Below, in pieces: positions 10,535-60,737 of a stretch of 64,000 nt of DNA; position 1 is the first letter of the stretch; each line of letters starts with the position of its first letter. The stretch is taken from contig CAZRIX010000001.1 in assembly GCA_964600255.1 (NCBI GenBank), positions 43,948-107,947 of the forward strand, written 5' to 3'. The DNA comes from an uncultured Candidatus Saccharibacteria bacterium (GTDB lineage: Bacteria > Patescibacteriota > Minisyncoccia > Phycocordibacterales > PALSA-1337). The notes below the pieces were generated by a model, which did no database searches, was not told the DNA's origin, and saw nothing but the letters and a program-made list of their open reading frames with translations. The position numbers and the translations under genes are program-made.

Positions 10535-11582
10535 ATACAGGCAAAATTATTGATAGAGCAATAGATCCAACCACTAAGCCCATAAAAACCATTAGCACCG
10601 GCTCTATAAGTGAAGTAAAACTCTTTAATACATTCTCTATTTCTTGTTCAAATATCCTAGCCGTATGTCCGAAAAGCGCACCGAGGTTGCCTGTCTTTTC
10701 CCCAATACTAACCATATCAATCATCAAGCTTGGTATATACAATTTAGATCTATCCAAAGATATTGATAGTGCAATACCATTCAAAGATTCTGCATAAACT
10801 CTATTGAATGTATTCTTCAATACTGAGTTTGAATTTGAATCCCGAGCAAATACAAGAAGCTCCTGAATGCCTCTGCCGGAGTTAAGTAGCATTTCTCCCA
10901 TACTGCATATCGGTATCATCATATTTATTTTTGTATATTTATGAACTATGGGTATAGACAGGATAAGTAGATCGAACTTGTATTTAACCGTGGTGGATTT
11001 TAGGATAAGAATTCGAAGTAGTACACCTAGGACCAAGCCTGAAACAAGTGCATATATTCCAAACTCAGTCATGAGATAGTAGATCTCCTGCACTATTCTA
11101 GTCATGAGTGGTAGCTCAATATCTAGACTAGATAATAGAGGAACTATTTTAGGAAAAATATAAAGGATTAGAAAAAGCGACATAAAGATAGTGGCGATAA
11201 ATATAAATATTGGATACACCAATGCACTAACTATCTTCTTTTTTAACTCACTCTTTTTATAAAGATAGTTGTATGCCTGCAACAGTGAATCTGAAAGAGT
11301 TCCATTCTGCTCTCCGTTTTCTATGAGTATTAGCAGTAAACTATTGAATCTTAAGTTCTGGTTCCTTATAGATTTACTCAGACTTAATCCATGTTGAATA
11401 CTATTCACTATCTCTCCTAGCATATTTTTCTTACCTATAGAATTTTCTATCTTGCGGATCATCTCTAACCCATCGACAAGTGATATTCCGGAATTTAGTA
11501 ATATAGACAATCTCTGTGCAAAGTGTATTTGATCTGCCAGACTAAAAATCCTACTATTCATGTAATGTTCGATTGACTTCAT
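10506..11582 (-). CDS. pilC: Type IV pilus/T2SS platform protein (GspF/PilC family)
   Basis: Two T2SSF-like repeats with polytopic TM topology. Lies directly downstream of the PilB ATPase. Confidence 0.75.
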   Translation of the reverse strand: MKSIEHYMNSRIFSLADQIHFAQRLSILLNSGISLVDGLEMIRKIENSIGKKNMLGEIVNSIQHGLSLSKSIRNQNLRFNSLLLILIENGEQNGTLSDSLLQAYNYLYKKSELKKKIVSALVYPIFIFIATIFMSLFLILYIFPKIVPLLSSLDIELPLMTRIVQEIYYLMTEFGIYALVSGLVLGVLLRILILKSTTVKYKFDLLILSIPIVHKYTKINMMIPICSMGEMLLNSGRGIQELLVFARDSNSNSVLKNTFNRVYAESLNGIALSISLDRSKLYIPSLMIDMVSIGEKTGNLGALFGHTARIFEQEIENVLKSFTSLIEPVLMVFMGLVVGSIALSIILPVYEISNHLSK

Positions 11583-12690
11583 TTTCAGTTGTTATTCCAT
11601 TTTCTACTTTTATCATTGCGTCCTCATACATTGTCTTCATACCTTTGGAACGGGCATAAAGGGTAATATCTGCCATAGATGTTCGAGTCATTATGTATTT
11701 TCTCATTTCATCATCAACCATGAGTGTTTCTGCAACGACGGTTCGACCTTTATATCCAGACCCATCACATACCAAACATCCGCAACCAGCCCCGAAACAC
11801 ACCCTGCAAGTCTTTCTCACTAGTCTCTGGGCAATAACTAGTGAAAGAGTCGATGCTACTAGATACGGATCTATACCCATATCTACAAGCCTAGGAATTG
11901 CTCCTAGGGCCGAGTTTGTATGCAAAGTGGATAGAAGCAAATGACCAGTCAAAGAAACGTTTGTGGCAATGACAGCAGTCTCTTTGTCACGTATCTCACC
12001 TACCATTATGATATCTGGATCCTGTCTAACGATGGATCTCAATCCATTTGCAAAAGTAATACCGTGTTTTGAGTTTATTTGTATCTGCCTTACATCTGGG
12101 ATTGCGTATTCTATTGGATCCTCTAGTGTGATTATTGAGTTCTTGTTGGTAGCAAGTGATGCAATGAGTGTATACAGGGTCGAAGTCTTTCCGGACCCGG
12201 TTGGACCTGTTACCAATATCATTCCCTGATGCAATGACAGACTTGTAAGTATTCTATCTACATCTAGCTCAGAAAATCCGAGACTGCCTAGTGTAGGAAT
12301 TTCTTTGTCATTCTTTAATATTCTAAGTACAGCATTCTCTCCGTAGTGTGTCGGTATGATCGAAACTCTCACGTCACAGTTAAATGATAATTGAGCAAAC
12401 TTAAATCTTCCATCTTGTGGTACAAAATGTATATCTGTTCGTAATCCAGACACTACTTTTATCCTAGCTATTACTTCTTCATGGGTATCGTGCAAAAGTG
12501 TATCTATCACCGTCAAAACCCCATCTATCCTAAACTTAACAACTGTACCGTTTGGTGATGGGTCTATGTGTATGTCGGATGCATTTCTATACAAAGCAAA
12601 GGTAACTATAGAGTCTACCAGCTCTACAACAGAAACGATGTCATGCAACATTTTTTCGTTATTAATAATTTTATATATCTTTTCTTGCAT
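11554..12690 (-). CDS. pilB: Type IV pilus assembly ATPase (GspE/PilB family), short form lacking the N-terminal domain
   Basis: Walker A GPTGSGKTST. Asp and His boxes. C-terminal tetracysteine CRVCFGAGCGCLVC. Confidence 0.8.
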   Translation of the reverse strand: MQEKIYKIINNEKMLHDIVSVVELVDSIVTFALYRNASDIHIDPSPNGTVVKFRIDGVLTVIDTLLHDTHEEVIARIKVVSGLRTDIHFVPQDGRFKFAQLSFNCDVRVSIIPTHYGENAVLRILKNDKEIPTLGSLGFSELDVDRILTSLSLHQGMILVTGPTGSGKTSTLYTLIASLATNKNSIITLEDPIEYAIPDVRQIQINSKHGITFANGLRSIVRQDPDIIMVGEIRDKETAVIATNVSLTGHLLLSTLHTNSALGAIPRLVDMGIDPYLVASTLSLVIAQRLVRKTCRVCFGAGCGCLVCDGSGYKGRTVVAETLMVDDEMRKYIMTRTSMADITLYARSKGMKTMYEDAMIKVENGITTENEVNRTLHE

Positions 12691-12823
12691 GCGAAAAGAT
12701 TAACAAAATGAGATTAAGAGAATATAAAAGATTAATAAAAAAGTGATAAAAAGACCTATATACTGTGAATATCTTTGTAAATTATGTCGTTATACACATA
12801 TACACAGCCATAATTGATTTTGC

Positions 12824-13582
12824 TTGTTTTTTGTTGTATATTACTATCCGGCTGTTCTTCTCGTTTTTAACGTTAAGAAATCTCCAGCTACGCTAGAAAA
12901 TTCGGTGAAAGGAATAAGAGTGAGAAAACTGGTTCACTTTGGCCTCCACGGCCCATCATGCTCCGGAAAGGGCTACGTCACAGGTCACCTATGCGAACGC
13001 TATCACGGACACGTCTTCGTGATTGGTCTAGGTGACATGATTCGTGCTCGGCGCAGTGCCGATCCAGAATTCAGAGCCTATACTGACCAACAGACGCGCG
13101 ACGGTGTGATGATAGATGACGCGATTGTCACAGAAATGACTCGAGTCCGATTCGAGGAAGGCCTTCGTGCCGGATACGACACCTTCATCTGGGAAGGTTT
13201 CGGACGCAACTACACCCAAATGAAGCAGCAAATGGAGTGGTGGGGCAAAAATGATGGTCGTATCTTCAACCTCCTAGCAGGCCTAGACACAGTGGTCGAG
13301 AGACTTCGTAAGGCAATCAGTGAGGGCAGACGATCTGATCGAGAAGATAACGGTGCGATCACTGTACGTTTTGCGCTTCACGACAGTCAGATGAGTGAAG
13401 TTGCGCGGGCGGTAAGGAACGCTGACCGTTTCTTGACCCCGATCGATGCGAGCGTTGATTTGGGGTTGTTTGCTCGCAAAATTGCGTTCTACGCCAACGG
13501 AGTGCGTGGTTTTAGGGAGGCTTCAGCCCCCACAGAATCATACATGAACAGCCAGCGTACTGCGGATGCAGTTGCAGCATAG
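12824..13582 (+). CDS. P-loop nucleoside-monophosphate kinase, adenylate-kinase-like. High-GC foreign gene. True start is probably near 12905-12930.
   Basis: GLHGPSCSGKGY P-loop. GDMIRA and GFGRNYTQ resemble the adenylate kinase GDLLRA and GFPRT motifs. GC is ~53% in an AT-rich backbone. Confidence 0.45.
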   Translation: MFFVVYYYPAVLLVFNVKKSPATLENSVKGIRVRKLVHFGLHGPSCSGKGYVTGHLCERYHGHVFVIGLGDMIRARRSADPEFRAYTDQQTRDGVMIDDAIVTEMTRVRFEEGLRAGYDTFIWEGFGRNYTQMKQQMEWWGKNDGRIFNLLAGLDTVVERLRKAISEGRRSDREDNGAITVRFALHDSQMSEVARAVRNADRFLTPIDASVDLGLFARKIAFYANGVRGFREASAPTESYMNSQRTADAVAA

Positions 13583-13603
13583 TCCCGCCTCTTACAGGCT
13601 CAA

Positions 13604-13637
13604 AGCCGTCGCCCCCTCACGGGACGACGGCTTTTTT
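13604..13637 (+). terminator. Intrinsic terminator after the kinase-like gene
   Basis: GCCGTCGCCCC...GGGACGACGGC hairpin followed by TTTTTT. Confidence 0.6.
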
Positions 13638-13676
13638 CCATCCAATTTTACCTAGAAATCTCTATTTTAAATATTC

Positions 13677-15872
13677 CTACCCAACCCATTCTTCAACCAT
13701 CAACATTTTCTTGTCCTGTATAGGCATATCTTTCCAAATCTCTTCTGTTACATATGGAATAAATGGATGTAGTACTTTTAATATTTTTGCCAACGTATGC
13801 AATAGGAACTGCTTGCGGGATTTTATCTCCATTTCATTTCCCTCTTTTAATATTTTCTTACTATCCTCAAGTATTACATCTGCAAAGTTATGCCATGCAT
13901 AGTGGTACAACTTCTCTGCTGCTAGGTATAGACGATAATTCTCAATGTCACCGGTAATCTCTTTTAGTAGACTTGATAGCTCTTCATTTAGTTTTGCATC
14001 AGCATCACTCCACTTATCAAATCCCTTATCCAATTCTTCCCCATCAACTGAAGTCAAAACGAAGCGAGTGATATTCCAAAGCTTATTTGCAAAATGTTTG
14101 TAACCCTTGATCTTATCTTCAGAAAGTTTCAAATCATTACCCGGTCCATTACCTATGATCAAAGACAAGCGTGTTGCATCAGCGCCGTATTTCTCAATCA
14201 TATCGAGAGGATTGATGTTAGTTTCTGGCTTTGACTTAGACATTTTCTCTCCACTTGCTGTACGTACTAGTCCATGTAAATACACAGTTTTAAATGGGAC
14301 AGTATCAAGCAAACATCCAGTCATTAGTATCATACGAGCTACCCAGAAGAAAAGAATATCGTATCCGGTCTCTAGTAAATCAGTTGGATGGAAAGTATTT
14401 AGATCTACAGTCTTCTCTGGCCAACCGAGAGTAGAGAAAGTCCAAAGTCCAGATGAGAACCAAGTATCCAAGGTATCCTCATCTTGCTTCCAGCCCTCAC
14501 CCTTTGGTGCCTCAACTCCAACATAAATCTCTTCACCCTTGTACCAAACAGGAATTCTATGACCATACCAGATCTGTCTTGAAATACACCAATCTCGAAG
14601 ATTATTTATCCAACTAAAATATGTTTTCTCAAATCTATCTGGAACAATATTTATCTTCTTACTCTCAACAGCATCAATCATCATTTCCTTGAGAGTTCTC
14701 TCCTTCCCATTTTTCTTAAACTTTTTGTTAACAGCGATGAACCATTGCAACATAACTTGTGGCTCTATAATTCCACCAGTTCTCTCGGCCGTCGCAACGT
14801 TGTGAGTATAATCTTCTTCTTTTACCAAAAGACCTTTTTCCTTCAACTTCTCTAGCATCTTTTTCCTTGCCTCAGCAATTTTCATTCCAGCAAATTCTCC
14901 GGCGATTGGAAGTAGTTTGCCAAGTCTATCTATAATCTGTTCACCTTCAAGATTATGTCGTTGGGCGATATCAAAGTCCACCATACTATGGAAAGGAGTA
15001 ATAGTCATAACTCCAGTACCAAATTCCATATCGATAGAATCATCCTTTATGATAGTTGCCGTGATGGGTCCGTTTATCCATTCCAAATCAATTTTCTGTC
15101 CATGCTTGTAATCCTCATATCTCTTATCGTCTGGATGCATTACGACGTACTTATCACCGAACTTTGTCTCAGGTCGTGATGTACCAATAGTAAAAGGTCC
15201 GTACTTGAAATAATAAAACTTTGTCTTCTCTTCAACATAAACAATCTCATCGTCAGAAATGGTTGTCTGTCCTTTTGGATCCCAGTTAACTATTCTATTG
15301 CCACGATAAATGAGACCTAGGTCATACATTTCTTTAAATGCAGTTCTTACGGCTAGATTTCTTTTTTCATCCAAAGTAAAAGCTTCGCGAGACCAGTCTA
15401 TAGATGCTCCCATTTTTATAACTTGCCCGACAATAGTATCGTGACTAGCCAAAGCAAAGTCATTCACTCTTTTCAAAAATTCTTCACGCCCCAAGTCATG
15501 ACGGTTCTTGCCTTCTTTCTTTGTTAAATCTTTCTCAACTTTAGATTGAGTAGCGATTGCAGCATGATCAGTTCCAGGAATCCAAAGAGTTTTGTACCCT
15601 CTCATTCTCTTAAAACGAATCAAAATATCCTCTATAGCAATCATAGCAGCGTGACCCATATGCAAAGTTCCAGTAACGTTCGGTGGAGGCAAAACGATGG
15701 TATATGGCTCTACATGACGAGCAGGAAGCTTGTCAGGATTGAAATACCCACTAGCAAGCCACTCTTCGTAAGTTCGACTTTCGACCTCTAGGTGGTTGTA
15801 TGGCTTTAGGAATTTCTCATTTATGTTTGGATTAATATAACCCTCCTTCTGCTCTTTGATGTCTTTGCTCAT
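13677..15872 (-). CDS. valS: Valyl-tRNA synthetase (short form)
   Basis: PPPNVTGTLHMGHA (HIGH) and KMSKS motifs. Editing-domain region present. 731 aa. Confidence 0.8.
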   Translation of the reverse strand: MSKDIKEQKEGYINPNINEKFLKPYNHLEVESRTYEEWLASGYFNPDKLPARHVEPYTIVLPPPNVTGTLHMGHAAMIAIEDILIRFKRMRGYKTLWIPGTDHAAIATQSKVEKDLTKKEGKNRHDLGREEFLKRVNDFALASHDTIVGQVIKMGASIDWSREAFTLDEKRNLAVRTAFKEMYDLGLIYRGNRIVNWDPKGQTTISDDEIVYVEEKTKFYYFKYGPFTIGTSRPETKFGDKYVVMHPDDKRYEDYKHGQKIDLEWINGPITATIIKDDSIDMEFGTGVMTITPFHSMVDFDIAQRHNLEGEQIIDRLGKLLPIAGEFAGMKIAEARKKMLEKLKEKGLLVKEEDYTHNVATAERTGGIIEPQVMLQWFIAVNKKFKKNGKERTLKEMMIDAVESKKINIVPDRFEKTYFSWINNLRDWCISRQIWYGHRIPVWYKGEEIYVGVEAPKGEGWKQDEDTLDTWFSSGLWTFSTLGWPEKTVDLNTFHPTDLLETGYDILFFWVARMILMTGCLLDTVPFKTVYLHGLVRTASGEKMSKSKPETNINPLDMIEKYGADATRLSLIIGNGPGNDLKLSEDKIKGYKHFANKLWNITRFVLTSVDGEELDKGFDKWSDADAKLNEELSSLLKEITGDIENYRLYLAAEKLYHYAWHNFADVILEDSKKILKEGNEMEIKSRKQFLLHTLAKILKVLHPFIPYVTEEIWKDMPIQDKKMLMVEEWVG

Positions 15873-15960
15873 ATATTTATGTATTGAATAATAGCAGAAA
15901 AAGGGGCCTTTTGACTAGTTTTTTATATAAAAAACATTCAATTTTGTCTAATCTTTACTA

Positions 15961-16082
15961 TTGACTTTTCATATAAAATGTGCTAATATATTAGGAGAAG
16001 TTAGAGAAAACTGAGTACTCTGCCGTGCTTTGCACGGAGTGGAGGAAAAAGTGATCTTTGACAATTTAACAGGAGATAGTGT
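15961..16082 (+). promoter_or_regulatory. Consensus-like sigma70 promoter (TTGACT-17-TAATAT) plus conserved structured leader, copy A
   Basis: TTGACT at 15961-15966, 17-nt spacer, TAATAT at 15984-15989. The leader has a CCGTGC/GCACGG hairpin and GGAGG tracts. Copy B at 17070 is near-identical. Confidence 0.6.
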
Positions 16083-16970
16083 ATGGACATTAGTTTTAAC
16101 AAGGAAACCAACGTTTTGAGATGGACCCCAGTTCTATTAACAGATCGATATGTAGTGAAGATGGAAGGTGGAACTGCTCCAGATGACTGGACTAATGAGT
16201 ACTCAGTCCCTGAAACAGTAACCGGCATTAAACTAGTTGAATCGGCGTACTGGGGCAACATCAAGGAAACTGGTGCGAAGATAACCATCACTGCGCTCGA
16301 TGATAGTAGGAGCACTCTGGATACTGTCGACATCAACATTACCATCCCGAAGCAGAAGTGGCACCAGGGAGCGGCCGTGAGGCTGTTCATGCTACTGGCG
16401 GTCCTACTCGGCGCTTGGGCGTCATACTCACAGTACAAATTGGGTAAGGCCAATGACGTTATGGCTGAGCGGGATGAAGCAAAAACACTTCTTGCTGCTC
16501 AGGTGACACTGACAGCAGACTGGAAGAAGGCACACGACAAAGCTACCAACCAGCCAGTTGTAACATTGTACGAAACCAATGTGGTAACGGTGCCTGTGTA
16601 CGAGAAGATCAAAGTCTACGACATCCCGCAAGGGATGCCGAAGGCTGGACCAGCGACGAATGATACGTTGGTCCATTACTTCTCGCCTACCAACCAGCAC
16701 ACGGTGACGAAGTTCATCACCGATGGAGATGGGACTATGTTCCTCACTCCAAACGACTGGCAGATCAACTGCCTGGTCTACGGTAACGTGGCCGATTTCG
16801 ATCGGCTCGTGAACATCGGGGGACTTACCAACCCCCACTGGATCCATTACGGACCAGGAACAAAACTTCCAGAGGCGACCAAGGTGGTCGCATATTGGAT
16901 TAGAAACCGAGTGCAGAACTCCCACCTCAAGGTGGAGTTCGTGCTCACACCCGTCGCCTCTACTCCATAG
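16083..16970 (+). CDS. Hypothetical membrane protein (single central TM) in the high-GC island
   Basis: 295-aa ORF with RBS AGGAGA. GC ~50%. Central hydrophobic helix AAVRLFMLLAVLLGAWASY. No recognisable motif. Confidence 0.5.
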   Translation: MDISFNKETNVLRWTPVLLTDRYVVKMEGGTAPDDWTNEYSVPETVTGIKLVESAYWGNIKETGAKITITALDDSRSTLDTVDINITIPKQKWHQGAAVRLFMLLAVLLGAWASYSQYKLGKANDVMAERDEAKTLLAAQVTLTADWKKAHDKATNQPVVTLYETNVVTVPVYEKIKVYDIPQGMPKAGPATNDTLVHYFSPTNQHTVTKFITDGDGTMFLTPNDWQINCLVYGNVADFDRLVNIGGLTNPHWIHYGPGTKLPEATKVVAYWIRNRVQNSHLKVEFVLTPVASTP

Positions 16971-16990
16971 CAAAGCGCGACCGGCAAAGG

Positions 16991-17025
16991 GAGCCTGGGA
17001 TTTTATTCCAGGCTCTTTTCTTTTG
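16991..17025 (+). terminator. Intrinsic terminator
   Basis: GAGCCTGG-N9-CCAGGCTC perfect 8-bp stem followed by TTTTCTTTT. Confidence 0.65.
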
Positions 17026-17069
17026 TGTGTTTACTAAATAATTTAAAGATTTTTAAAGCATAATTACCA

Positions 17070-17182
17070 TTGACTTTTCATTTAAAATGTGCTAATATAT
17101 TAGGAGAGTTAGAAGGCCAAGTACTCTGACACGCTGTAGCGTGGAGGGAGGAAAGGAAGAACTTTGACAACAAGGATAATTC
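17070..17182 (+). promoter_or_regulatory. Consensus-like sigma70 promoter plus conserved structured leader, copy B
   Basis: TTGACT at 17070-17075, 17-nt spacer, TAATAT at 17093-17098. The hairpin ACGC/GCGT sits where copy A has CCGTGC/GCACGG, which is a compensatory change. Confidence 0.6.
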
Positions 17183-18112
17183 GTGAAAAAACTATCATAC
17201 GAGTCGCAATTTTGGAGATTAGTCGTCTCCATCATGTCACTGCCCATAACGATGTACGTCATCTACAAGGTCGTATACACGGTTGTTGTATTCATGCGAT
17301 TCGATCCATCGGTGGCCGAGAAGTTAGCGAACTGGGTAGGCCTACCGGCCTCCTGGTATATCTACTTCAAGTTCCTACTCGAACGGTTCTGGATTGATGT
17401 AGCACTTGAAGACGTGGTCCTAGAAGATTCCTTCAGTTTCCGGAACAGGAAGGTCGGTGATCAAGCAGACCCATTGGCTTTGCCGAGTGGTCTGAGGTCA
17501 GTTGGTGGACCAGGGTTCAGAGCGAAGGGTTTCTTTGAGACCGTCAAGACGAGATTACCTGTAGTATCTAAAGAGAAGAATGGTGGCCTCGAAGTCGACG
17601 ACAAGCAAACGAACACCTTCAACGTCAGTTACTCCATGACATTTACTAGGGTCAGGGGTAAATTCTCTGTGATTGGTTCAACCTACAAAGAGGAAGAGGC
17701 AGTTAAAACCCTCGAAGCCATCGTTGAGGCGCGAATTGAGGAATTATTCGCAAACGAGCAGGATGGTAGGAATATCCGGGCTTCACTTGATAAACGTAAC
17801 GAGGATCTCTCTAAGGTCCTCGGCGGCGATCGAGATATCAGCACCGAAGAGATTCGTTGTGGGTTCTTCATAACAAAACTTCGAATCAAGACGGTTGATG
17901 AGGCTGCAGCAACAAAACAGCGTAACCAGACCCAAGCGCTGGCAACAGCTGTGAATTCTGCAGCAGATGCTCTATCAAAGGGTATCGGGGCTGGAGCAGA
18001 TCCAAACCTTATTATGGCCCTTGCTGCAAGTGCAGCTGGGGTTAAGGGTGACGGAGTTAAAGTGAGTATAGTCAAGGGTCTCGAGAAAGGCGGCACATAC
18101 AACGTAAGTTAA
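17183..18112 (+). CDS. Membrane protein with weak SPFH/band-7-like features (GTG start)
   Basis: N-terminal TM helices. Central region and Ala/Gln-rich C-terminal helix loosely resemble stomatin/HflKC organisation. Unknown function. Confidence 0.4.
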   Translation: MKKLSYESQFWRLVVSIMSLPITMYVIYKVVYTVVVFMRFDPSVAEKLANWVGLPASWYIYFKFLLERFWIDVALEDVVLEDSFSFRNRKVGDQADPLALPSGLRSVGGPGFRAKGFFETVKTRLPVVSKEKNGGLEVDDKQTNTFNVSYSMTFTRVRGKFSVIGSTYKEEEAVKTLEAIVEARIEELFANEQDGRNIRASLDKRNEDLSKVLGGDRDISTEEIRCGFFITKLRIKTVDEAAATKQRNQTQALATAVNSAADALSKGIGAGADPNLIMALAASAAGVKGDGVKVSIVKGLEKGGTYNVS

Positions 18113-18113
18113 C

Positions 18114-18554
18114 ATGAACACCACACTTCTCAAAAAACTGGCGTGGTATGGGCCAATCGCGGCGATACTAATCGCTACGATGTTCTACATCCGATCCTAC
18201 AACGGGTCAGAAAAGAAGGTACAGCACGTCCCTGTCACTGGCGGTGGTAAGGCTTCGGCAACCACCACAATCACGATCATCAAGGGGGCAACTCCTAGGA
18301 TGATCGATTACCCACATTTCTCCCGGTTCAGATCGGGAATTGTGGAAGATGACGTTGCGTACGTCATACACATCAATCTCGTCGGTCGGCCTGACCATGA
18401 GATTGAAAAAATATTCGTACCTGCCAGAAACGACAGACCGAGCAATTGGTCTGATCCGCTCGCAGGCAAGAATATTGCGAGGATCGGGTTTACGCTCGAT
18501 CCTTCCTCGGCCAAGGATATTGGCCACATCGAGTACGTAGTCGAGAGGCAGTAG
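18114..18554 (+). CDS. Hypothetical membrane-anchored protein, probably co-transcribed with 17183..18112
   Basis: ORF begins 2 nt after the upstream stop. N-terminal TM. High GC. Confidence 0.45.
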   Translation: MNTTLLKKLAWYGPIAAILIATMFYIRSYNGSEKKVQHVPVTGGGKASATTTITIIKGATPRMIDYPHFSRFRSGIVEDDVAYVIHINLVGRPDHEIEKIFVPARNDRPSNWSDPLAGKNIARIGFTLDPSSAKDIGHIEYVVERQ

Positions 18555-25887: not shown

Positions 25888-26163
25888 ATGAAAAGAATTC
25901 AAATGGTGGGTGTCGCCATTGCTGCATACACTCTCTTAATTACAGTGGAGTACCTTTACCTAAATATATGGTGGTCGATGCCGATTTGGTTATTATCGGG
26001 CGTGACTGCATATAGACTCTCTAACCAGAAGGAGAGTCGCTACGCAATAATGATCCTGTCCTGCATCGCAGGACTGTTCTCTCTCGCCTATCTACTCGGA
26101 TACGTAGTGGCAGAGTACGACATAGAGAGAATTACAAACCCCGGTAAAAAAACCGGGGCATAA
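25888..26163 (+). CDS. Small hypothetical membrane protein
   Basis: 91-aa ORF with two hydrophobic helices. TTGACT-17-TATGAT promoter upstream. Stem-loops plus T-run downstream at 26140-26210. Confidence 0.4.
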   Translation: MKRIQMVGVAIAAYTLLITVEYLYLNIWWSMPIWLLSGVTAYRLSNQKESRYAIMILSCIAGLFSLAYLLGYVVAEYDIERITNPGKKTGA

Positions 26164-39376: not shown

Positions 39377-40306
39377 TTACAAGGACTTGAAGATCCCCAA
39401 CTTAATGAGAATCCAGATAGAAATGCCTGACCAATCAAAGCATCTCTCGAAGGTCGTCTCGCCTTGCCAATACAGTTGACTGCGATCAACTCGTGTATTC
39501 CTCCCCTCCCTTACACATTTAAGTGAAGGGTAGGCGTTATGGTGATTGTTGTGCCACCCTTCACCTAATGTAAGAATCGCGCATATCAAACTATTACGAC
39601 TTTCATCTCCGGTGCTATACCTCTGTGTTCCAATCAAATGCATGGCGGAATTAATGAGGAACGTGCCGTGCCAAAGAATCGTCGTAGCGAAGAAATAAGC
39701 ACACAAGGAAAAGATGAAATTCCAAATGAAAGAAGTATATCCACCAATCGAAAGTAGCCCCCCGACTAGTGAAAATATTCCTCCACCTGAAATAATACCG
39801 ATCCATTGGCGATTCTCGATCCACCTCAGAAACATGTTTCTACCTAAAAGAGGTATGAGTGACCAATCAACAACTCTATCACTCCCCTCCTTAACTACCC
39901 AGAGCCAATGGCACCATGGTATACCTCGCTGTTTGCAACTATGGTGATCCTCAGGCTCGTCTGAGTATCTGTGGTGCCATACATGCTCTGCAGCCCACTG
40001 ACAAACACCACGTTGAGCATCTGCAGATGATATGAAAGCAGAGACATTCTCCATCCACTCAAAACGCAGTCTGAATGAACGGTGGGCAAAATACCGATGT
40101 CTCCACACAGTTATGAACCACATCCCGATCTTGTATCTAAAGAACACCATGAACAAAGAGAGTAGGAGGTTCTCAACACTAAGTGATCCCGCAACACCTC
40201 TCCAAATCAAGGAAAGTAGCCAGGCCACTCCTATCACTTGTACACCGAAAAACACATATGTGTTCGGTGACTTCCAATCTACTTGCGATAACGCTTTCAT
40301 GTACAA
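39377..40306 (-). CDS. Membrane fatty-acid (acyl-lipid/acyl-CoA delta-9-type) desaturase
   Basis: Three His boxes: HRYFAH, HVWHHRYSD and WHNNHHNAYP, in the order and spacing of stearoyl-CoA desaturases. GC ~45%. Confidence 0.65.
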   Translation of the reverse strand: MYMKALSQVDWKSPNTYVFFGVQVIGVAWLLSLIWRGVAGSLSVENLLLSLFMVFFRYKIGMWFITVWRHRYFAHRSFRLRFEWMENVSAFISSADAQRGVCQWAAEHVWHHRYSDEPEDHHSCKQRGIPWCHWLWVVKEGSDRVVDWSLIPLLGRNMFLRWIENRQWIGIISGGGIFSLVGGLLSIGGYTSFIWNFIFSLCAYFFATTILWHGTFLINSAMHLIGTQRYSTGDESRNSLICAILTLGEGWHNNHHNAYPSLKCVREGRNTRVDRSQLYWQGETTFERCFDWSGISIWILIKLGIFKSL

Positions 40307-40448
40307 TCCTTGGTTAAGGTCTGTACTAATTTTAACATATGTAACTAGTTGAATAAGGTGGTGTTAAAAACTTCGATAACATAACCTTACATGCCGTCAG
40401 TCAAAAAACCGTATAGTTATTTTGATTGATCATTATATCAAATCTTTG

Positions 40449-40520
40449 TGACCCTACAGAGAGTCGAACTCTGGTTAACGGATTGAAAACCCGCTGTCCT
40501 AACCGTTAGACGATAGGGCC
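40449..40520 (-). tRNA. tRNA-Glu (UUC)
   Basis: 72-nt cloverleaf on the minus strand. Anticodon loop UUUUCAA. D- and T-arms close to bacterial tRNA-Glu. CCA not encoded. Confidence 0.8.
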
Positions 40521-40956: not shown

Positions 40957-41032
40957 GCGCGGTTAGCTCAGTTGGTAGAGCATCCCCTTGACGTGGGGAG
41001 GGTCACAGGTTCGAGTCCTGTATCGCGCACCA
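40957..41032 (+). tRNA. tRNA-Val (GAC), CCA encoded
   Basis: 76-nt cloverleaf GCGCGGTTAGCTCAGTTGGTAGAGC...ACAGGTTCGAGTCCTGT...CCA. Anticodon loop UUGACGU. Confidence 0.85.
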
Positions 41033-42102: not shown

Positions 42103-45100
42103 CTATTTTCCAAATAGTAATTTCAATATCTTAAGGAAATATGTCTTTGTACCTACAACAATAGCTGATGTCACCTTTGAGATCGTGCCTTTATTACCTT
42201 TTACTGCAGTTTTGTTAGCACCAGCATCATTCTTTGTACTTGAGACAACCCCTATTAATCCTGTAGCCTTCTTAGATACTACACTCGTCCCTGACTCACT
42301 AGCTTTTACTTCCTTAGAATTTTTTGAACTTTCTAGTGGCTTTAATGTTGGCGCCTTTGTGACTGGGTCCGGCACAAGACTTGCAAATGGTGAGGTTAAC
42401 TGCCTTACAAAATTAATTGCTTTATGTGGATTTACAGCGGTCACAATAGCAGCTACTGGAGTTACAATCTCAGGTTCTGGATTGTATATAGTTATAACTA
42501 CACTTGTTGTTGCGAAGTTATTTGATGAATCGCGTGCTACAGCATATACAGTATAGCTACCATCAGCATAACTAGTACTATTGAGAGAAGTAAAATATGG
42601 ACTAGCCACATCCTCCACTCCCAAATATACTCCATCAATCATAAATCGAACTCCAGCTAGCGATACATTATCTACTGCAGATGCAACTATACTTACCGCA
42701 TTTCCAGATACCACTTCAGCGTTAGCTGGAGATACGATGGAAATAACAGGGGCAGTTATGTCTGGCACAATATTTGAAACCGTAATACTTACCGATGTTG
42801 TCGCATAGTTATTTGATGAATCCCGGGCAACCGCAGTGACAACATAATTACCATTTGCAACTGAAGTACTGTCAAAAGATATTGTGTATGGACTACTTGT
42901 ATCTTCTGATCCAAGATTTACATTATCGAGTTTAAACTGTACCCCTGCGACAGCTATGTTATCTGTTGCTGTAGCGGCAATGCTGTAAGAGCTTCCTGAG
43001 ACCGTAGCGAGGTCTGTAGGTGATGTAATAGATACAACTGGATCTGTAGTATCGGGTATTACAACTGCCAAAGCAGAAGCCATATTAGAATTACTTGTTC
43101 CACTAGCATCAACTAGTCTTATTCTGTAATAATAATCAATTCCATCGGAAATATATGGATCAGTAAATGTTGTTGTACCCTCTGGCACCAAATCTGAAAC
43201 TATGTTTTGAGTAAATAGGAAATTCGTAGCTCTATCTACATACAACATATGTGATGTTGTAGCATTGTTTGTCCAAGTCAGATCAACTTGATTTGCTCCT
43301 CTAGTAGCATCCAAACTTGTTGCAGCTGGAGTCAAACTTACTGATGGGAATACATCATCTAGATTCCAACTACTGTTCCATGAAATAGACATCGTATTGT
43401 TTGTTGGGAATGTCAAAGGTAACCAAACATGTCTACTGTTATACAATGATCCAGCGAGATTATTACTATAATCAAATCTATCTCCGATATAAATATATGC
43501 ATCACCACGTCCAGGTATATGCTCTATATCCGTTGTCTGGGAACGGTAAGCAATCATTCTATCTTCCTCAACACTAACCTGGAATGGATTTACAAGTGGT
43601 GACCAATTGCCCATAACACTCGTTGAGGTTGAATATTTATTCTCGTTTGGAGCCCATCCTGTTAGTCCAGATGTAAGTAGGAAGTACACACCATTTCGAA
43701 GTATCATCTGAGGACCCTCACGACCAATCAATACATTTGGTCTAACATATGTTCCAGAAGTGGTTAGATAATCATCTGATAGTTTTGAAATAACGAAATG
43801 CGTATTCGGACCGTCTGAGTATAGTAGATATCCTGATCCATCAGTATCCTTAAATAGGTTCATGTCGTTTAGATAGAATCCATCTGGGTTGTAAGATGAT
43901 GAAGCAATAGTGAATGCCCCGTATGGTGTGTCGTTGTAAGCAACCACTGCTGTAGATTTTCCGGATGCGATAACTCGGTGACCCCATAGTACGTATTTTC
44001 CAGTCGTGGCGTTATATAGCACGTGTGGTCTTTCTATCATATAACTTCTACCGAGATAAATAACAGGACCTTCATCTTTCCAATTTATCAAATCACTTGA
44101 TGAGTAACATGATATACCTACTGCTTCGATTTCTGGATCGTTTGCATTAAAAATCTGTCCGTACCAATAGTACTTACCGTTAAAGAATTGTATTTCTCCA
44201 TCATGTGACTCAATCAAATGGTTATCAGTATCTAACCAATCCTGTCCTGGCTTAAAATCGATATCGAACCAATATCTAGATTGAGGCGAGACTTCAGAGA
44301 CGAACATGCCATCACTTATAGCTATAGATTGAACTGTGGATGATGCACTCAGTACAAACGGTGCAGTGTATAGTACCGTTGTACCTTGTGGGACTCCGTC
44401 TACTACACTAGGAATACTACCGTCAGTTGTATAGTAAATAGATGCGTTGGTTGTGATACTAGAAAGTCTTACTCTAATTGGTTGTGCATACTTTCCTCCA
44501 TTTGGCGAAGCTGTAGGGTGAACAGGGGTATATGGAGTGGTTGTGCCAGGATTTCCAATCAATCTAAATTCGGCTAGGTTACCGTAGTTTCCATCTGGCA
44601 TAACTAGTCTGTAAAATCTGTATGCACTACCGCCGGCGTCGATAGCAATCTCACTCATCTGTCGCTGAGCATAATACGGAGGATATGGTTGTATTGTGTG
44701 TATAGTTGTCCAAGGTCCAGTACTAGAACTGACATTTGCTCCTTGCAGATATGCACCGTAAACTTGAACTGTGTATCCTGGTCTTGGTGCAATCTTCATT
44801 CGCGTTACAACAGCTGGTGCCTTTAGATCAAGGCCAACTAGAGAACCGTTTGCACTTTGAGAATCCCACCATGTAGAAGTATTGCCGTCATATACCTTTG
44901 AGTAAACATTTCCACTGTTATTGTAACTTCCTGGAGTTCCAAACTGGTATGCAGGTGAGATACTAAACTGTATTTCTCCAGTTGAAGTCGCTACCGGACA
45001 TGTTGCGGTGGTCAATGTCCTGTTTGGTCCATATGAAGTACCAGATAGGTTTATTGTATATGCTCTGAAGTTATAGACGGTAGCACATGATAGACCACTT

Positions 45101-48100
45101 ACTGTTAATGAGTATGGACCTACTGGATACAATCCAGTTTCAGTAGTTGTAGCTCCATAAGCGGAGTTTAGACCATACTGAAAACCTCTGGCTGTAGAAC
45201 TTGCTGCTCCGTCGTTTGTAATATTACCATTTAGTATTGCAGTGAAGCTTGTCGTTGAACTAGCTGCGGATGTAGTGATTGTTGCAGGCATAGAGTTATT
45301 CACGATCACTCCAATTGATGTAGACGTACTTACATTCCCTGTTGCATCCGCAGCAACAACTGAAATTGTATGATATCCATCTGCTACTGAAGTTGAATTC
45401 CAACTGATTGAATATGGTGATGTAGTTCCAGACGCACCTATACTAGTATTGGTATCAATTTTAAACTGTACACTTCCTATTCTCACGTTATCAGAAGTTG
45501 ATGCTGTAAGAGTTACGCTCGATCCTGTTAATGTTGAGCTGGCTGTTGGGACTACAATTGCTGTAGTCGGAGGAATTGTGTCAGCCAAAACTGTTATGGT
45601 TGTAGATGCGCCAGAATCTGGAGCCGTGATCCTCAATGTACCAGTACTACTACCAGCGGATACGGTGATGTTGGCACTGGTAGAGCTTGATACTACTTGT
45701 GACGTTATTGCTGCACCTGTACCACCACTTATTCCAAATGTAGGCGAACCGGGCGTACCAGAAGTCCAGCTGGTTGCATTTCCAGTCAGTGTTATCACAT
45801 TATTTATTGAGTTCTGATATATAGTCGGAGTATTGGCAGAAACAGTAATCTGGGTGTTTATTAGATTGACCAGAACGTCAGTTGATGTACCTACGTTGCC
45901 TGAAGAGTCGGTAACAATTACTCGTATATTATGAGGACCATCAGCAATACTTGCTGAATTCCATACTATTGAATACGGCGATGTTGTTCCAACCGCGCCG
46001 ATGTTTGTATTATCTACCTGAAACTGGACTGAACTTACACTAGTATCATCACTTGAAGTTGCCGTTAGAGTAACATTACCCAAAAGGTCTGCACCGTTTA
46101 CTGGAGACGTAACTGTTCCGGTTGGTGGAGTAACATCGGCTGATAGCAGGAAATTCGCGATAGCTGTTGTAGAGTTTGAAGTACCTGCAGCAGTCACAGT
46201 TCTGATTCTGTAGTAATATCTAGTATCGTTCACAATGTCAGTATCTACAAAATTTGAAATGGTAGTTGTTGCTCGTATTGAAATAAAGTTTTCAGTAAAA
46301 ATATTGTCAGTTGCCCTATCGATGTACAACTCATAGGAGTTCGTCTCATTATTAGTCCAAGACAGATTCACAGTCAGAGCATTCTTGGTTGCTGTGAGAC
46401 CGGTTGCGGCTTGTGTTGGTATAGAGGTTGTAAAAGCCTCGTCCAAAGTCCAGCCTGGATTCCAAGAGATCGACATGGTGTTGTCGGTTGGAAATGTAAT
46501 AGGTAAAAATAAATATGTACTATTGTATAGCGAGCCACTAGCCGTTGCTGAATTATCAAACCTATCTCCCAAATACATATACCCTTCGGTCCTGCCTTGG
46601 ATGGTTAATATGCCAGATGTATGAGATCTGTAAGCGATCGTATTATCTTCAGTTGCACTTGATTGAAAAGGATTAACTAGTGCAGAAAATGTACCCAGAG
46701 GACTGGTTGATGTTGAATATTTATTTGTTGTAGCAGTCCAACTATTTTGTCCACTATTTAACAAAAAGTAAACTCCATTTCTCTTTACCATTGCTGGCGC
46801 ACTTCTATTTGCATTCGCAGCTGAAATATTGGAAACACCAGACATACCTTCGTATGTACTATCTAGCTTGGAAATAATCATTTTAGAATTATCACTAGAT
46901 GTGTAAATTATGTATGCCGTACCATCTGTATCTTTAAATAGGTTGAGATCGTTCAATCCTAGGGCATCAGGATTAAGAGATGTGGTAACAACCCTAAACG
47001 GCCCGTATGGCGTACTTGATGTTGCGACTATTGCTCTAGAGTTTGTTACGTTTCTTGCCCACATAACATACCTACTTGTAGTAGCGTTATATATAACGTG
47101 TGGTCTTTCTAGTATATATGATGTATTTACATTAAAAACCAACCCCTGACTAGTCCAATTTACTAGGTCGGATGATGTATATAAGTTAACACCAAGTTTT
47201 TCCAACTCAGGTGAAATATTGTTCATTGACTCACCGTACCAGTAATATTTTCCATTGAAATAACTTATACCACCAGTATGTGCGTCTATGATATTGCCGT
47301 TATTGTCATGCCACGTGATTCCAGATCGGATTGCGGGATTGATGAAAAAATACGCTGGATTTGAAACCTCTGAGACATATGTATTTGCACTTACAGCAAT
47401 ACTTTTGATAGTCGTTGTTGCTGTTGTAGTTGCCATGAATGGACCTGTGTACAGACGAGTAGTACCTTGTGGTGAACCTCCACTAAAAGTTGGTGTCGTA
47501 CCATCGTTTGTATAATAAATAACTGCGTCCGTGGTTGAACTAGTAATAGTTACTTGAACTGGTTGTGCAAACTTTCCACCCATAGGACTAATCTTTGGGA
47601 CAACTGGTACGTATGGAGTCGTACTTGAAGCAATACCAATTAGTCTCATTTCTCCTAGAGATCCGTAGGCACCGTTTGGCATGACTAGGCGGTAATATCT
47701 GTAGAACAATCCACCAGTATTTATTGGTATTTCAGAAAATTGTTTCTGAGGATAGAACGGAGGATAACTAGGTATTGTATAAATCGTTGTCCAAGGTCCT
47801 GTAGAAGAACTCACGGTTGCACCTTGGAAAACAGCGCCATGTAGTCTAACCGTGTATCCTGTGCGTGGTGCTACCCACAGTTTTGTAACTTGCGCATTTA
47901 CAGTTAGATCCAATCCTACGTTTGAACCATTGGCAAAAGACTGATTGGCATCCCACCAACTAGTCAAATCTCCATCGAATACTTTGGCAATCGTGTTTCC
48001 GTTATTGAAATAACTTCCAGCTGTTCCTATTTGATATTGTGGAGCAATACTAAACTGAACTTCTCCTGTTGCTGCATATATGATTATAGGGTAAACAAAG

Positions 48101-48183
48101 GCGGAGATGAGCAAAAAGATTACTATGAAAAAGTGATCTTTAATCAACTTTTTTACTGCATAGTAAAATGTGCTCTTTTCCAT
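42103..48183 (-). CDS. Giant (2026 aa) secreted or surface protein with two tandem discoidin-like plus GH43-like beta-propeller modules, then FN3/Ig-like repeats
   Basis: N-terminal signal anchor. Two copies of an F5/8-type-C-like domain (DGDLTSWWDA / DGNTSTWWDS). Two clan GH-F propeller units (NGKYYWYG, SSDL.NW, ERPHV.YNATT..YV.W). Lys-rich C-terminal tail. Confidence 0.6.
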   Translation of the reverse strand: MEKSTFYYAVKKLIKDHFFIVIFLLISAFVYPIIIYAATGEVQFSIAPQYQIGTAGSYFNNGNTIAKVFDGDLTSWWDANQSFANGSNVGLDLTVNAQVTKLWVAPRTGYTVRLHGAVFQGATVSSSTGPWTTIYTIPSYPPFYPQKQFSEIPINTGGLFYRYYRLVMPNGAYGSLGEMRLIGIASSTTPYVPVVPKISPMGGKFAQPVQVTITSSTTDAVIYYTNDGTTPTFSGGSPQGTTRLYTGPFMATTTATTTIKSIAVSANTYVSEVSNPAYFFINPAIRSGITWHDNNGNIIDAHTGGISYFNGKYYWYGESMNNISPELEKLGVNLYTSSDLVNWTSQGLVFNVNTSYILERPHVIYNATTSRYVMWARNVTNSRAIVATSSTPYGPFRVVTTSLNPDALGLNDLNLFKDTDGTAYIIYTSSDNSKMIISKLDSTYEGMSGVSNISAANANRSAPAMVKRNGVYFLLNSGQNSWTATTNKYSTSTSPLGTFSALVNPFQSSATEDNTIAYRSHTSGILTIQGRTEGYMYLGDRFDNSATASGSLYNSTYLFLPITFPTDNTMSISWNPGWTLDEAFTTSIPTQAATGLTATKNALTVNLSWTNNETNSYELYIDRATDNIFTENFISIRATTTISNFVDTDIVNDTRYYYRIRTVTAAGTSNSTTAIANFLLSADVTPPTGTVTSPVNGADLLGNVTLTATSSDDTSVSSVQFQVDNTNIGAVGTTSPYSIVWNSASIADGPHNIRVIVTDSSGNVGTSTDVLVNLINTQITVSANTPTIYQNSINNVITLTGNATSWTSGTPGSPTFGISGGTGAAITSQVVSSSTSANITVSAGSSTGTLRITAPDSGASTTITVLADTIPPTTAIVVPTASSTLTGSSVTLTASTSDNVRIGSVQFKIDTNTSIGASGTTSPYSISWNSTSVADGYHTISVVAADATGNVSTSTSIGVIVNNSMPATITTSAASSTTSFTAILNGNITNDGAASSTARGFQYGLNSAYGATTTETGLYPVGPYSLTVSGLSCATVYNFRAYTINLSGTSYGPNRTLTTATCPVATSTGEIQFSISPAYQFGTPGSYNNSGNVYSKVYDGNTSTWWDSQSANGSLVGLDLKAPAVVTRMKIAPRPGYTVQVYGAYLQGANVSSSTGPWTTIHTIQPYPPYYAQRQMSEIAIDAGGSAYRFYRLVMPDGNYGNLAEFRLIGNPGTTTPYTPVHPTASPNGGKYAQPIRVRLSSITTNASIYYTTDGSIPSVVDGVPQGTTVLYTAPFVLSASSTVQSIAISDGMFVSEVSPQSRYWFDIDFKPGQDWLDTDNHLIESHDGEIQFFNGKYYWYGQIFNANDPEIEAVGISCYSSSDLINWKDEGPVIYLGRSYMIERPHVLYNATTGKYVLWGHRVIASGKSTAVVAYNDTPYGAFTIASSSYNPDGFYLNDMNLFKDTDGSGYLLYSDGPNTHFVISKLSDDYLTTSGTYVRPNVLIGREGPQMILRNGVYFLLTSGLTGWAPNENKYSTSTSVMGNWSPLVNPFQVSVEEDRMIAYRSQTTDIEHIPGRGDAYIYIGDRFDYSNNLAGSLYNSRHVWLPLTFPTNNTMSISWNSSWNLDDVFPSVSLTPAATSLDATRGANQVDLTWTNNATTSHMLYVDRATNFLFTQNIVSDLVPEGTTTFTDPYISDGIDYYYRIRLVDASGTSNSNMASALAVVIPDTTDPVVSITSPTDLATVSGSSYSIAATATDNIAVAGVQFKLDNVNLGSEDTSSPYTISFDSTSVANGNYVVTAVARDSSNNYATTSVSITVSNIVPDITAPVISIVSPANAEVVSGNAVSIVASAVDNVSLAGVRFMIDGVYLGVEDVASPYFTSLNSTSYADGSYTVYAVARDSSNNFATTSVVITIYNPEPEIVTPVAAIVTAVNPHKAINFVRQLTSPFASLVPDPVTKAPTLKPLESSKNSKEVKASESGTSVVSKKATGLIGVVSSTKNDAGANKTAVKGNKGTISKVTSAIVVGTKTYFLKILKLLFGK

Positions 48184-49446: not shown

Positions 49447-50418
49447 TCAGGGCATGAGCCGGAAGAATTGGGCGTCGGCGATTCCACTGACGGCAATCGT
49501 CTGACCCGCCACAATGTTGGTACCGGAAGTCCAGGGTCCGGTAAGTGTTGGGGCCACCTGCACCACATAGGTTCCGGCGTTGCCGTTGGTCTCGGCCCCC
49601 AGGTGCACAACACCATCCATGTTGTGGATGAAGAGGCGCGGGGTGGGAGGGATGAGAGACAACGTAAGCACCTTGGATGATGCTCCGGCAGTAGCCGTAA
49701 ACGTGATGGCAAAGTCGCCCACCACGTATGACATGACATTCTGGACCTCATTCTGATTCGAGACCTGGTAGGATTTGAAACCAACCACCACAACGAGCTC
49801 AGCAACCATCTGGGAAGAACTTCCCGTAGTCACCGTGCCACCATCTGCCCTCCAACCAGGCGACAGATCCGTATAGGAGTTGGACAGAAACGTGACGTCT
49901 TGTCCGAGGCTGTTGTTTCCTCCATCCTGACTCCGCAAAGCTGCGGAGACCATGGACAGACTGACATCGTTTGCGCCAGTCTTGCTCTTGGCTCGGACAA
50001 GGACCCACACAGTCTTACCATTCGCACCTGCGAACGAACCGGAAGGATTGAATCCAGCCCAATATGTCACTCCCGAGGGAGTGGTCATGATGCTGTCCCA
50101 CCTAATATGGTTAATCAGGCGGGGATCCGTCAGGTTGGTCGGAGATCCCATCGGCAATGTGCCAGTGGCTCGAACCACCGAAATGGCCTTCGCGACCAAT
50201 CCAGCGAAGGCGGGATTGAACCTCGGTGACCCTTCGAAGGGCACCAGGGTGATGTCGACCTGGGTGGTGGTATCCGCCGCAGGAGCGGCACCGCGAATTG
50301 CGATGCCTTCTGCAGTAGTATCACCATTGTCGACCACCACCGGCGGGGTCGATGCAGCGCTGACTCCGAAGACCATCGCGAAAGCGACGGCCAACAGGGA
50401 CATGATTTTCTTGTACAT
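49447..50418 (-). CDS. Hypothetical secreted protein encoded in a high-GC (~55%) island
   Basis: Signal peptide MYKKIMSLLAVAFAMVFGVSAAS. Gly/Thr/Ser-rich beta-type composition. No recognisable catalytic motif. Confidence 0.5.
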   Translation of the reverse strand: MYKKIMSLLAVAFAMVFGVSAASTPPVVVDNGDTTAEGIAIRGAAPAADTTTQVDITLVPFEGSPRFNPAFAGLVAKAISVVRATGTLPMGSPTNLTDPRLINHIRWDSIMTTPSGVTYWAGFNPSGSFAGANGKTVWVLVRAKSKTGANDVSLSMVSAALRSQDGGNNSLGQDVTFLSNSYTDLSPGWRADGGTVTTGSSSQMVAELVVVVGFKSYQVSNQNEVQNVMSYVVGDFAITFTATAGASSKVLTLSLIPPTPRLFIHNMDGVVHLGAETNGNAGTYVVQVAPTLTGPWTSGTNIVAGQTIAVSGIADAQFFRLMP

Positions 50419-51795: not shown

Positions 51796-51950
51796 AAAAA
51801 GCCTGGCGACATCTACACTGATTAAAATATACACTATTGACATTTATTGGAAATAGTGTATATTTTAATTCTGTTTGGCAATAAAATACCGTGTGATCGA
51901 TTGCCACACAGGGATCCGAACGCTTCCGCGTCTCGGGTCTTCTTTATTTG

Positions 51951-52023
51951 TGCCAAGGACCAGGATCGAACTGGTGACCCTTCCCTCTTCAGGGGAATGC
52001 TCTACCAACTGAGCTACCTTGGC
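51951..52023 (-). tRNA. tRNA-Phe (GAA)
   Basis: 73-nt cloverleaf GCCAAGGTAGCTCAGTTGGTAGAGC-ATTCCCCTGAAGAGGGAA-...GGTTCGATCC. Anticodon loop CUGAAGA. CCA not encoded. Confidence 0.8.
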
Positions 52024-53765: not shown

Positions 53766-53767
53766 TG

Positions 53768-60657: not shown

Positions 60658-60737
60658 AATAAAATTTCAAGCGAATTATTAATAATCGAATATCACTTAT
60701 TATATCAAACAAAAAACCTCCTGTTAAGGAAGTTTTT

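Follow-up and report, generated by a model that had tools for sequence, protein, structure and literature searches.

We analysed a stretch of 64,000 nucleotides (contig CAZRIX010000001.1, from an uncultured Candidatus Saccharibacteria bacterium), referred to here as the window, and focused on the gene that lies between the pilus operon gene pilB and the gene valS. We coin the name adkL for this gene (window positions 12920-13582), which encodes an adenylate-kinase-like protein and sits on the + strand, with both flanking genes on the - strand and an intrinsic terminator at its end. A preliminary description of the locus had reported an open reading frame (ORF) of approximately 53% GC, transcription opposite to both neighbours and a GC-rich terminator, all of which we could confirm. 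It had also taken the gene to be foreign, part of an island acquired between valS and the pilB operon, a view that our results do not support. With a probability of about 0.62, adkL is instead a pilus-linked, vertically inherited, GC-rich gene with a nucleoside monophosphate (NMP) kinase fold, which would serve as an accessory kinase and carry a tag in its Ala-ended tail.

The GC content of the adkL coding sequence is 53.1% (0.61, 0.45 and 0.53 at the first, second and third codon positions, GC1, GC2 and GC3), compared with 34-39% in pilC, pilB and valS (GC3 0.32-0.35), with the immediate flanks pilB and valS at 39% each. Relative to all 663-bp windows of the 64-kb stretch (mean 0.390, standard deviation 0.040), adkL has a GC z-score of +3.6, and just 2.5% of these windows attain a GC of 0.50. 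The four bases are used almost evenly at its third codon positions (A.22, C.32, G.21, T.25), and the protein contains 11.4% Arg and 2.7% Lys, compared with 4.4% and 6.9% in the flanking proteins.

The start codon needs care because the database entry for this protein (P0001) is a 252-aa version that starts at TTG 12824. We consider this start an over-extension, as the promoter is inside the added segment, the orthologous DNA in loci L001 and L085 contains in-frame stops (although the DNA itself is conserved), and the starts of orthologues coincide with GTG 12920 (ATG in L001), with AAAGGA upstream. The preliminary description was therefore right that the AT-rich N-terminus is probably untranslated, but its length is 32 codons, not 25.

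To place the gene in context, we read 13 lineages: the window, L001/L004, L085, L087, L007, L008, L089, L090, L092, L093, L094 and L096. In all 13, adkL is divergent from the pilus operon, and in 12 of them pilB is its immediate neighbour, while in the remaining one (L093) adkL faces a pilin gene. Across the 12 lineages with the order pilB-pilC-LVIVD protein-pilins, the spacer between pilB and adkL is 215-235 bp (229 bp in the window). The second flank varies: within the window's subclade it is valS, in other lineages bipA-thrS. The identity clusters of adkL and pilB are concordant. The family is small: only four close homologues of AdkL exist among 5.8 billion proteins, and an exhaustive profile search gave 38 family representatives at E <= 1e-10. 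A further profile search of the 5.8-billion-protein set with the 33-sequence alignment, limited to 8000 candidates, brought no additional members. It was found only beside pilus operons of Paceibacteria-type Patescibacteria, i.e., bacteria of the Candidate Phyla Radiation (CPR). By the relatives of its valS, the window itself falls in Patescibacteria (CPR), class Paceibacteria, close to metagenome-assembled genomes labelled Candidatus Taylorbacteria, with a best valS identity of 82%.

The high GC content is shared by the whole family. Both GC and GC3 of adkL are above those of every flanking gene in 13 of 13 lineages, with a mean excess of +0.19 for GC3, +0.21 for GC at 4-fold sites and +0.08 for GC1+2. 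At the same time, adkL GC3 follows the host: it is 0.34-0.40 in genomes of 30-31% GC and 0.5-0.6 in genomes of 36-40% GC. Synonymous sites (pS) are saturated between lineages and yet the excess persists, so un-ameliorated foreign DNA cannot explain the GC content of adkL. The check that the preliminary description had proposed, i.e., the GC content of orthologues in relatives, thus gave a shared elevation, which is one half of what it had named as evidence against its own reading. The GC-richness of adkL is a standing, gene-specific trait at its own compositional equilibrium. Three candidate causes can be proposed: a recombination-prone locus subject to GC-biased gene conversion, selection that acts on the codons or the mRNA, and circulation of alleles among lineages. 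A GC3 offset of +0.2 that is held through saturating divergence in 13 lineages makes adkL a clean case for the question of biased gene conversion versus selection.

Substitution rates in the closest pair point to common descent with the flanks. Between the window and L004, the number of synonymous substitutions per site (dS) is 0.24 for adkL, 0.196 for pilB and 0.195 for valS, and this equality argues for co-inheritance, contrary to the acquired-island claim. At equal dS, the ratio of nonsynonymous to synonymous rates (dN/dS) is 0.33 for adkL versus 0.018 for pilB and 0.029 for valS, and in strains with 99% identity in PilB, that of AdkL is just 77%. By these rates, adkL is functional but weakly constrained. 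Within 12.5-13.8 kb, we found no mobility genes, integrase, tRNA or meaningful flanking repeats (as potential att sites, there were only chance-level 14-15-mers), there were no AdkL relatives in the viral contigs, phage records or plasmids searched, and AdkL has no significant PHROG match. A mobile-element origin was rejected on these null searches. When the features of genomic islands are compared, adkL has a deviant composition (which is not diagnostic, being common to all orthologues), while the gene occupies the same site in all 13 lineages sampled (its absence from L005 and L006 being read as loss) and mobility signatures were not seen. Taken together, the position of adkL in 13 lineages, its conserved promoter, its dS and the composition of its orthologues indicate that adkL is a functional gene passed on by vertical descent and no recent arrival from a foreign source.

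Two relatives have no adkL. In L005 and L006, valS directly adjoins pilB, and L006 keeps a decayed copy of the adkL promoter. Because of this remnant, the difference indicates a deletion of adkL in L005/L006 rather than a gain in the window. Both keep the pilus operon, so the role of adkL would be auxiliary.

The spacer between pilB and adkL contains two divergent promoters. The adkL promoter is of the sigma-70 type, and when it was compared at 10 loci, its -10 box was invariant and its -35 box conserved as TTGC/TTGA. A promoter scan also gave a putative pilB promoter on the - strand (TTATCA-17-TATATT), and the pilB-proximal half of the spacer contains the conserved blocks GATAAAAAGA and CTGTG[A/G]ATA. 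The fixed divergent arrangement and this conserved, shared control region suggest that adkL is co-regulated with the pilus. Between the divergent promoters, at 12763-12772, the window has the block CTGTGAATAT, which has two mismatches to the DnaA-box consensus TTATCCACA; in relatives (L001, L085, L005 and L006) the same block is CTGTGGATAA, the reverse complement of that consensus. This DnaA-box-like block could be the site of a shared regulator or could be due to chance.

Downstream of the promoter, the adkL leader contains the conserved block GGCTGTTCTTCT. The 5' end of the adkL transcript is predicted to lie near 12849. Across 7-8 loci, the first ~45 nt of the leader (12850-12895; GGCTGTTCTTCTCGTTTT...AAGAA...CAGCT) are better conserved than the coding sequence, and by eye, a pairing of GGCTG/CAGCT and TTCTT/AAGAA is kept with some compensatory changes. 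A search of 12600-13750 gave no Rfam match at gathering level or at E <= 10, save chance matches on the terminator. With this result and a fold at the level of shuffled sequences, a riboswitch or structured leader finds no support. The terminator is a different matter: its hairpin has a free energy (dG) of -26.6 kcal/mol (z = -6.0, with 0 of 200 shuffles equally stable) and is preserved in L085 and L087 via compensatory changes. The coordinates of all features at the locus are given in the table.

Table. Features of the adkL locus, with positions in the window.
Feature	Position	Strand	Description
pilB	11554-12690	-	Pilus ATPase of the T2SSE type; heads the pilB-pilC-LVIVD-pilin operon; divergent neighbour of adkL
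pilB-proximal half of divergent spacer	12691-12813	.	Putative pilB promoter and conserved blocks; from four-locus alignment and L005/L006 sequences
Putative pilB promoter	12749-12721	-	
adkL promoter	12814-12842	+	-35 TTGATT 12814-12819, 17-nt spacer, -10 TATATT 12837-12842; from scan
Mis-annotated N-terminal extension	12824-12919	+	32 codons from TTG 12824; promoter and 5' leader
Conserved leader block	12850-12861		
Shine-Dalgarno sequence	12908-12913		AAAGGA
adkL coding sequence	12920-13582	+	220 aa, GTG start; predicted short-LID adenylate/NMP-kinase fold; 53% GC
P-loop GPSCSGKG	12950-12973	+	Residues 11-18; non-canonical variant of GxPGxGKGT
Recombination breakpoint in adkL	13420-13440	.	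From sliding identity and dS by segment
C-terminal tail past kinase core	13517-13579	+	Residues ~200-220, ...TADAVAA; predicted local distance difference test (pLDDT) 52-56
Intrinsic terminator	13602-13640	+	14-nt arms 13602-13615 and 13621-13634, then T-run; between convergent adkL and valS
valS	13677-15872	-	Other flank of adkL

AdkL passes the Pfam adenylate-kinase profile ADK (PF00406) with 38.9 bits against a gathering threshold of 26.8, and its residues 10-161 align with profile positions 2-142 of 151. This score and the P-loop near its N-terminus bear out the preliminary description, which had recognised an adenylate-kinase-like P-loop and NMP-kinase motifs. The P-loop consensus of the family is GPPxVGKGx, and the P-loop motif splits 52 canonical matches from 81 family-type matches. 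In 33-35 family members, with identity down to 20%, G38, G93, R96, Q100 and R141 are invariant, and conservation is 90% or higher for G11, G16, K17, G18, D143 and R150. The invariant or >=90% conserved positions thus include the NMP site G38-D-x-x-R42, the DGxxR motif (G93/R96) and R141/D143/R150 of the LID domain. They align with K13, the R36 motif, R88, Q92, R156, D158 and R167 of the E. coli enzyme. In adenylate kinases, a Gln of the Q100 type, four residues after the Arg of DGxxR, reads adenine. The conserved phosphoryl-transfer residues support the view that AdkL would be an active NMP kinase, most simply one specific for adenosine monophosphate (AMP).

The predicted structure agrees with the sequence motifs. 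An AlphaFold (AF2) model of AdkL, built with a 33-sequence family alignment, has a pLDDT of 91.7 and contains the three-domain fold of CORE, NMP-bind and LID. When the model was searched with Foldseek, the top 50 PDB matches consisted entirely of adenylate kinases and UMP/CMP kinases, with E from 7e-10 to 4e-7. The best were short-LID AK1-type and UMP/CMP kinases (probability 1.0), with a template modelling (TM) score of about 0.8 and up to 0.84 (target-normalised). On sequence and model, AdkL belongs to the adenylate-kinase (NMP-kinase) fold, in which it and its relatives make up a small subfamily that has no name so far.

Comparison with known enzymes defines what is particular to this subfamily. 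With the AK1 and UMP/CMP kinases (PDB 1z83/2c95/3adk; URA6, 1uky; 2ukd and 1tev; M. tuberculosis Adk, 2cdn), AdkL shares the predicted fold, a short LID with R-x-x-R-x-D...R, and the motifs GDxxR, GxL(V/I)PD and DGxxRxxxQ. However, it is just 16-20% identical to them, and its family differs in having GP(P/S)xxGKG(Y/F/L/Q) in place of the P-loop GxPGxGKGT, a C-terminal extension of ~30 aa ending in Ala, a range limited to a CPR subclade and a link to the pilus operon. With canonical bacterial adenylate kinases (TIGR01351/NF001381), AdkL shares the PF00406 superfamily and the catalytic residue set, but it falls below all equivalog cut-offs and is lost in close relatives. Its genomic context is also different, as canonical bacterial adk usually sits with secY and map in a ribosomal-protein operon. 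In addition, adkL is GC-rich relative to its own genome, and its dN/dS is 10-18x that of the adjacent housekeeping genes. What is new in the adenylate-kinase family is a pilus-linked, tailed, fast-evolving and persistently GC-rich variant.

The tail deserves separate mention. The C-terminal extension brings the median length to 223 aa in the family, compared with 193 aa in canonical proteins. Of 81 family-type proteins, 37 (46%) have Ala as their final residue, compared with only 6 of 52 canonical ones (Fisher p 3e-5), and relative to an Ala frequency of 6.9%, 37 of 81 has a binomial p of 7e-22. The close orthologues (P0002-4, P0007 and P0008) all terminate in VAA or IAA, the window's protein terminates in AVAA, and longer family members carry the tail motif L[ST]PR[QE]R[LI]. 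Degrons of the ssrA type end in ...LAA-COOH and are recognised by ClpXP, and the non-polar C-terminus of AdkL, ending in Ala-Ala, fits the sequence pattern of such degrons. The Ala-ended tail may thus be a recognition tag, with an ssrA-like proteolysis tag as the simplest reading, and it would provide proteolytic or partner control of AdkL. Unlike ssrA tags, the tail is encoded and not added by transfer-messenger RNA (tmRNA), and some family members end in Phe or have no tail.

Although adkL itself appears to be resident, the locus has recombined. Up to ~13430, the window and L004 are 90-97% identical, but past that point, as far as the stop codon, L004 instead matches L001 at 97-100% identity, with a third, saturated allele in the window. 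In the segment that follows (13596-16005, i.e., the terminator, valS and its upstream region), the window, L004 and L001 are all ~93% identical. On the pilus side, by contrast, including the pilus and glycogen genes, identity between the window and L001 is no more than 57-75%, and their dS is 1.85 in pilB versus 0.35 in valS. These differences in identity and dS indicate that valS, a gene of ordinary composition, and not adkL was exchanged between lineages fairly recently. The exchanged valS segment has sharp boundaries at two GC-rich blocks. In this case, the GC peak belongs to a long-established gene, and it is the gene of ordinary composition that moved, so composition-based island calls in CPR genomes can mislead.

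As for function, AdkL would catalyse the reaction NTP + (A)MP <-> NDP + (A)DP, in which NTP and NDP are nucleoside tri- and diphosphates and ADP is adenosine diphosphate. It would be an accessory, dispensable paralogue that is co-regulated with the type IV pilus, and among the possibilities that the preliminary description had raised, a duplicate nucleotide kinase is the best reading. CPR bacteria depend on nucleotide salvage and attach to hosts with pili. One option is that AdkL buffers adenosine triphosphate (ATP), ADP and AMP for the PilB ATPase; another is that it phosphorylates nucleoside monophosphates from DNA that is taken up through the pilus. Both options have analogues. The competence operons of Bacillus subtilis encode the dCMP deaminase ComEB and ComFC, and AdkL would likewise be a nucleotide-salvage-type enzyme encoded beside type IV pilus/DNA-uptake genes and presumably co-regulated with them; however, it belongs to another enzyme family, its gene is divergent and not in the operon, and DNA uptake by this pilus is putative. 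Eukaryotic flagellar adenylate kinases are tethered near ATPase motors, and the shared idea would be local buffering by 2 ADP <-> ATP + AMP, here for PilB. Those multi-domain proteins surfaced in our searches just as generic ADK-domain matches, though, and a placement of AdkL itself near PilB is conjectural. A search with CPR-like canonical Adks gave 3739 matches, and by their source names, other CPR bacteria carry canonical adenylate kinases. Our literature search found no paper linking adenylate kinase with PilB or CPR pili. An unnamed adenylate-kinase subfamily tied to a type IV pilus operon would connect the activity of the pilus with the handling of nucleotides in scavenging, host-attaching bacteria, in a concrete way that can be tested.

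A number of observations weigh against our reading of adkL as a pilus-linked accessory kinase. The link to the pilus is one of position only, the 13 lineages in which it was seen are not phylogenetically independent, and the pilus can do without adkL, as L005 and L006 have the operon but not the gene. The predicted fold of the adkL leader is no more stable than shuffles (z -0.15). With regard to the protein, AdkL fails every NCBIfam adenylate-kinase equivalog (the best scores are 46.6 versus 187 bits for NF001381 and 40.3 versus 168 for TIGR01351), and its P-loop, GPSCSGKGY, deviates from the GxPGxGKGT of adenylate kinases. Its activity and substrate are predicted from sequence, and since yeast uridylate kinase carries the same Gln, AMP specificity is a conjecture. 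Finally, when the 64-kb window was searched by tblastn with E. coli Adk, InfA and S13, adkL was the sole match and no ribosomal-protein operon appeared. There is no second adenylate-kinase-like gene in the window or the fetched loci, and the status of adkL as an accessory paralogue is indirect.

The last of these points leads to a rival explanation: adkL may be the genome's only adenylate kinase, i.e., a displaced housekeeping adk that turned fast-evolving. Its intact catalytic residues would suit this, but the deletion of the gene in L005 and L006 would be hard to reconcile with an essential function, as would its raised dN/dS, the low AdkL identity between strains that share nearly identical PilB, equivalog scores at a quarter of the cut-offs, and the presence of canonical enzymes in other CPR bacteria. 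We therefore consider it unlikely. A recent acquisition from a high-GC donor that has yet to ameliorate is very improbable. The contrast between 53% GC and 37-39% in the flanks, the Arg and Lys content and the scarcity of close homologues are what one would expect of such a gene. However, all 13 lineages, with protein identities as low as 20-30%, have it in a constant position with a conserved promoter; GC3 is unchanged where synonymous sites are saturated; orthologues are equally GC-rich; in the closest pair, gene and flanks have the same dS; and the searches for integrase, tRNA, flanking repeats and relatives in phages, plasmids and viral contigs were all negative.

Other explanations concern where and on what the kinase acts. 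AdkL could be an exported or translocated effector, with the tail as its signal, that manipulates host or external adenine nucleotides, and an arms race would then account for the speed at which it evolves. Rapid sequence change, shuffled alleles, the disordered tail with its conserved terminal Ala (and the L[ST]PR[QE]R[LI] motif of longer members), and the position beside pilus genes and, in the window's subclade, genes for type IV secretion system (T4SS) pilins all fit this idea. So does the fact that other GC-rich genes in the window encode membrane or secreted proteins, and in Pseudomonas aeruginosa, a secreted adenylate kinase is a virulence factor. But AdkL has no N-terminal signal peptide, its route of secretion would be hypothetical, the T4SS-pilin neighbourhood is missing in bipA-flanked lineages, and dN/dS is below 1, so we regard export as quite unlikely. 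The same low standing applies to a broader, speculative version, in which adkL and the other GC-rich, fast-evolving single genes of this genome (the membrane-protein trio at 16.0-18.6 kb and the gene for a secreted protein at 49447-50418) would form a host-interaction class in an episymbiotic CPR bacterium; AdkL would be exported via its tail to tap or disturb the host adenylate pool, and the conserved GC offset would have been left behind by persistent exchange of alleles, through GC-biased gene conversion, in the course of an arms race. The preliminary description had also suggested a toxin or a kinase associated with anti-phage defence. A small, fast-evolving and compositionally odd P-loop kinase could be either, and a degron-like tail would suit a tightly controlled protein, but PADLOC gave 0 families at E <= 1, PHROG gave nothing significant, no partner antitoxin or defence gene is beside adkL, and the gene has a fixed location by pilus and housekeeping genes instead of a variable island. 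This leaves the toxin or defence suggestion scarcely credible, and we retain the pilus-linked accessory kinase as the preferred reading.

The preliminary description had placed adkL within 3 kb of another acquired island, at 16-18.6 kb, with both flanking valS. A GC-rich block is indeed present at 16.0-18.6 kb, but it is not recent, as its orthologues are also GC-elevated. Its three genes (16083-18554) encode membrane-anchored proteins with no Pfam family, which are conserved in place and 26-37% identical to those of L008. The orthologous, GC-elevated blocks are at 6617-9778 in L007, 362-3126 in L008, 11100-13311 in L085 and 4088-6638 in L087. A row of T4SS-pilin (PF18895) genes follows the three GC-rich genes.

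The two leading genes of this block are preceded by near-identical 39-bp promoter copies (TTGACT...TGCTAATAT) at 15960-15998 and 17069-17107, with 2 matches found and 0 expected. In the leaders that follow (to 16082 and 17182), a hairpin is kept by compensatory changes (CCGTGC/GCACGG versus CACGCT/AGCGTG). Both leaders have a CTTTGACAA motif 10-25 nt ahead of the start codon, and the motif is also upstream of the L085 and L087 orthologues. Three independent L001-type assemblies stop no more than ~150 bp past the promoter copy upstream of valS (contig ends L001 13062-13149 and L002 9450-9585). They break exactly where the GC-rich block of the window begins, which suggests strain-variable or repeated sequence there.

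Elsewhere in the window, there are RNA genes for bacterial RNase P RNA class A (60737-61097, - strand, 135.6 bits) and for four tRNAs, Glu-TTC (40448-40520), Val-GAC (40957-41032), Phe-GAA (51950-52023) and Arg-CCT (53767-53839), none of which adjoins adkL. A 2026-aa ORF on the - strand (42103-48183) has ordinary composition. Other genes stand out by their GC content: a 91-aa ORF at 25888-26163 on the + strand has a GC3 of 0.53, and a fatty-acid-desaturase-like membrane protein is encoded at 39377-40306 on the - strand (GC 0.45, GC3 0.48). At 49447-50418, also on the - strand, lies the gene for a protein of 323 aa whose N-terminus resembles a signal peptide and which belongs to no Pfam family; the gene has a GC of 0.57 and a GC3 of 0.66.

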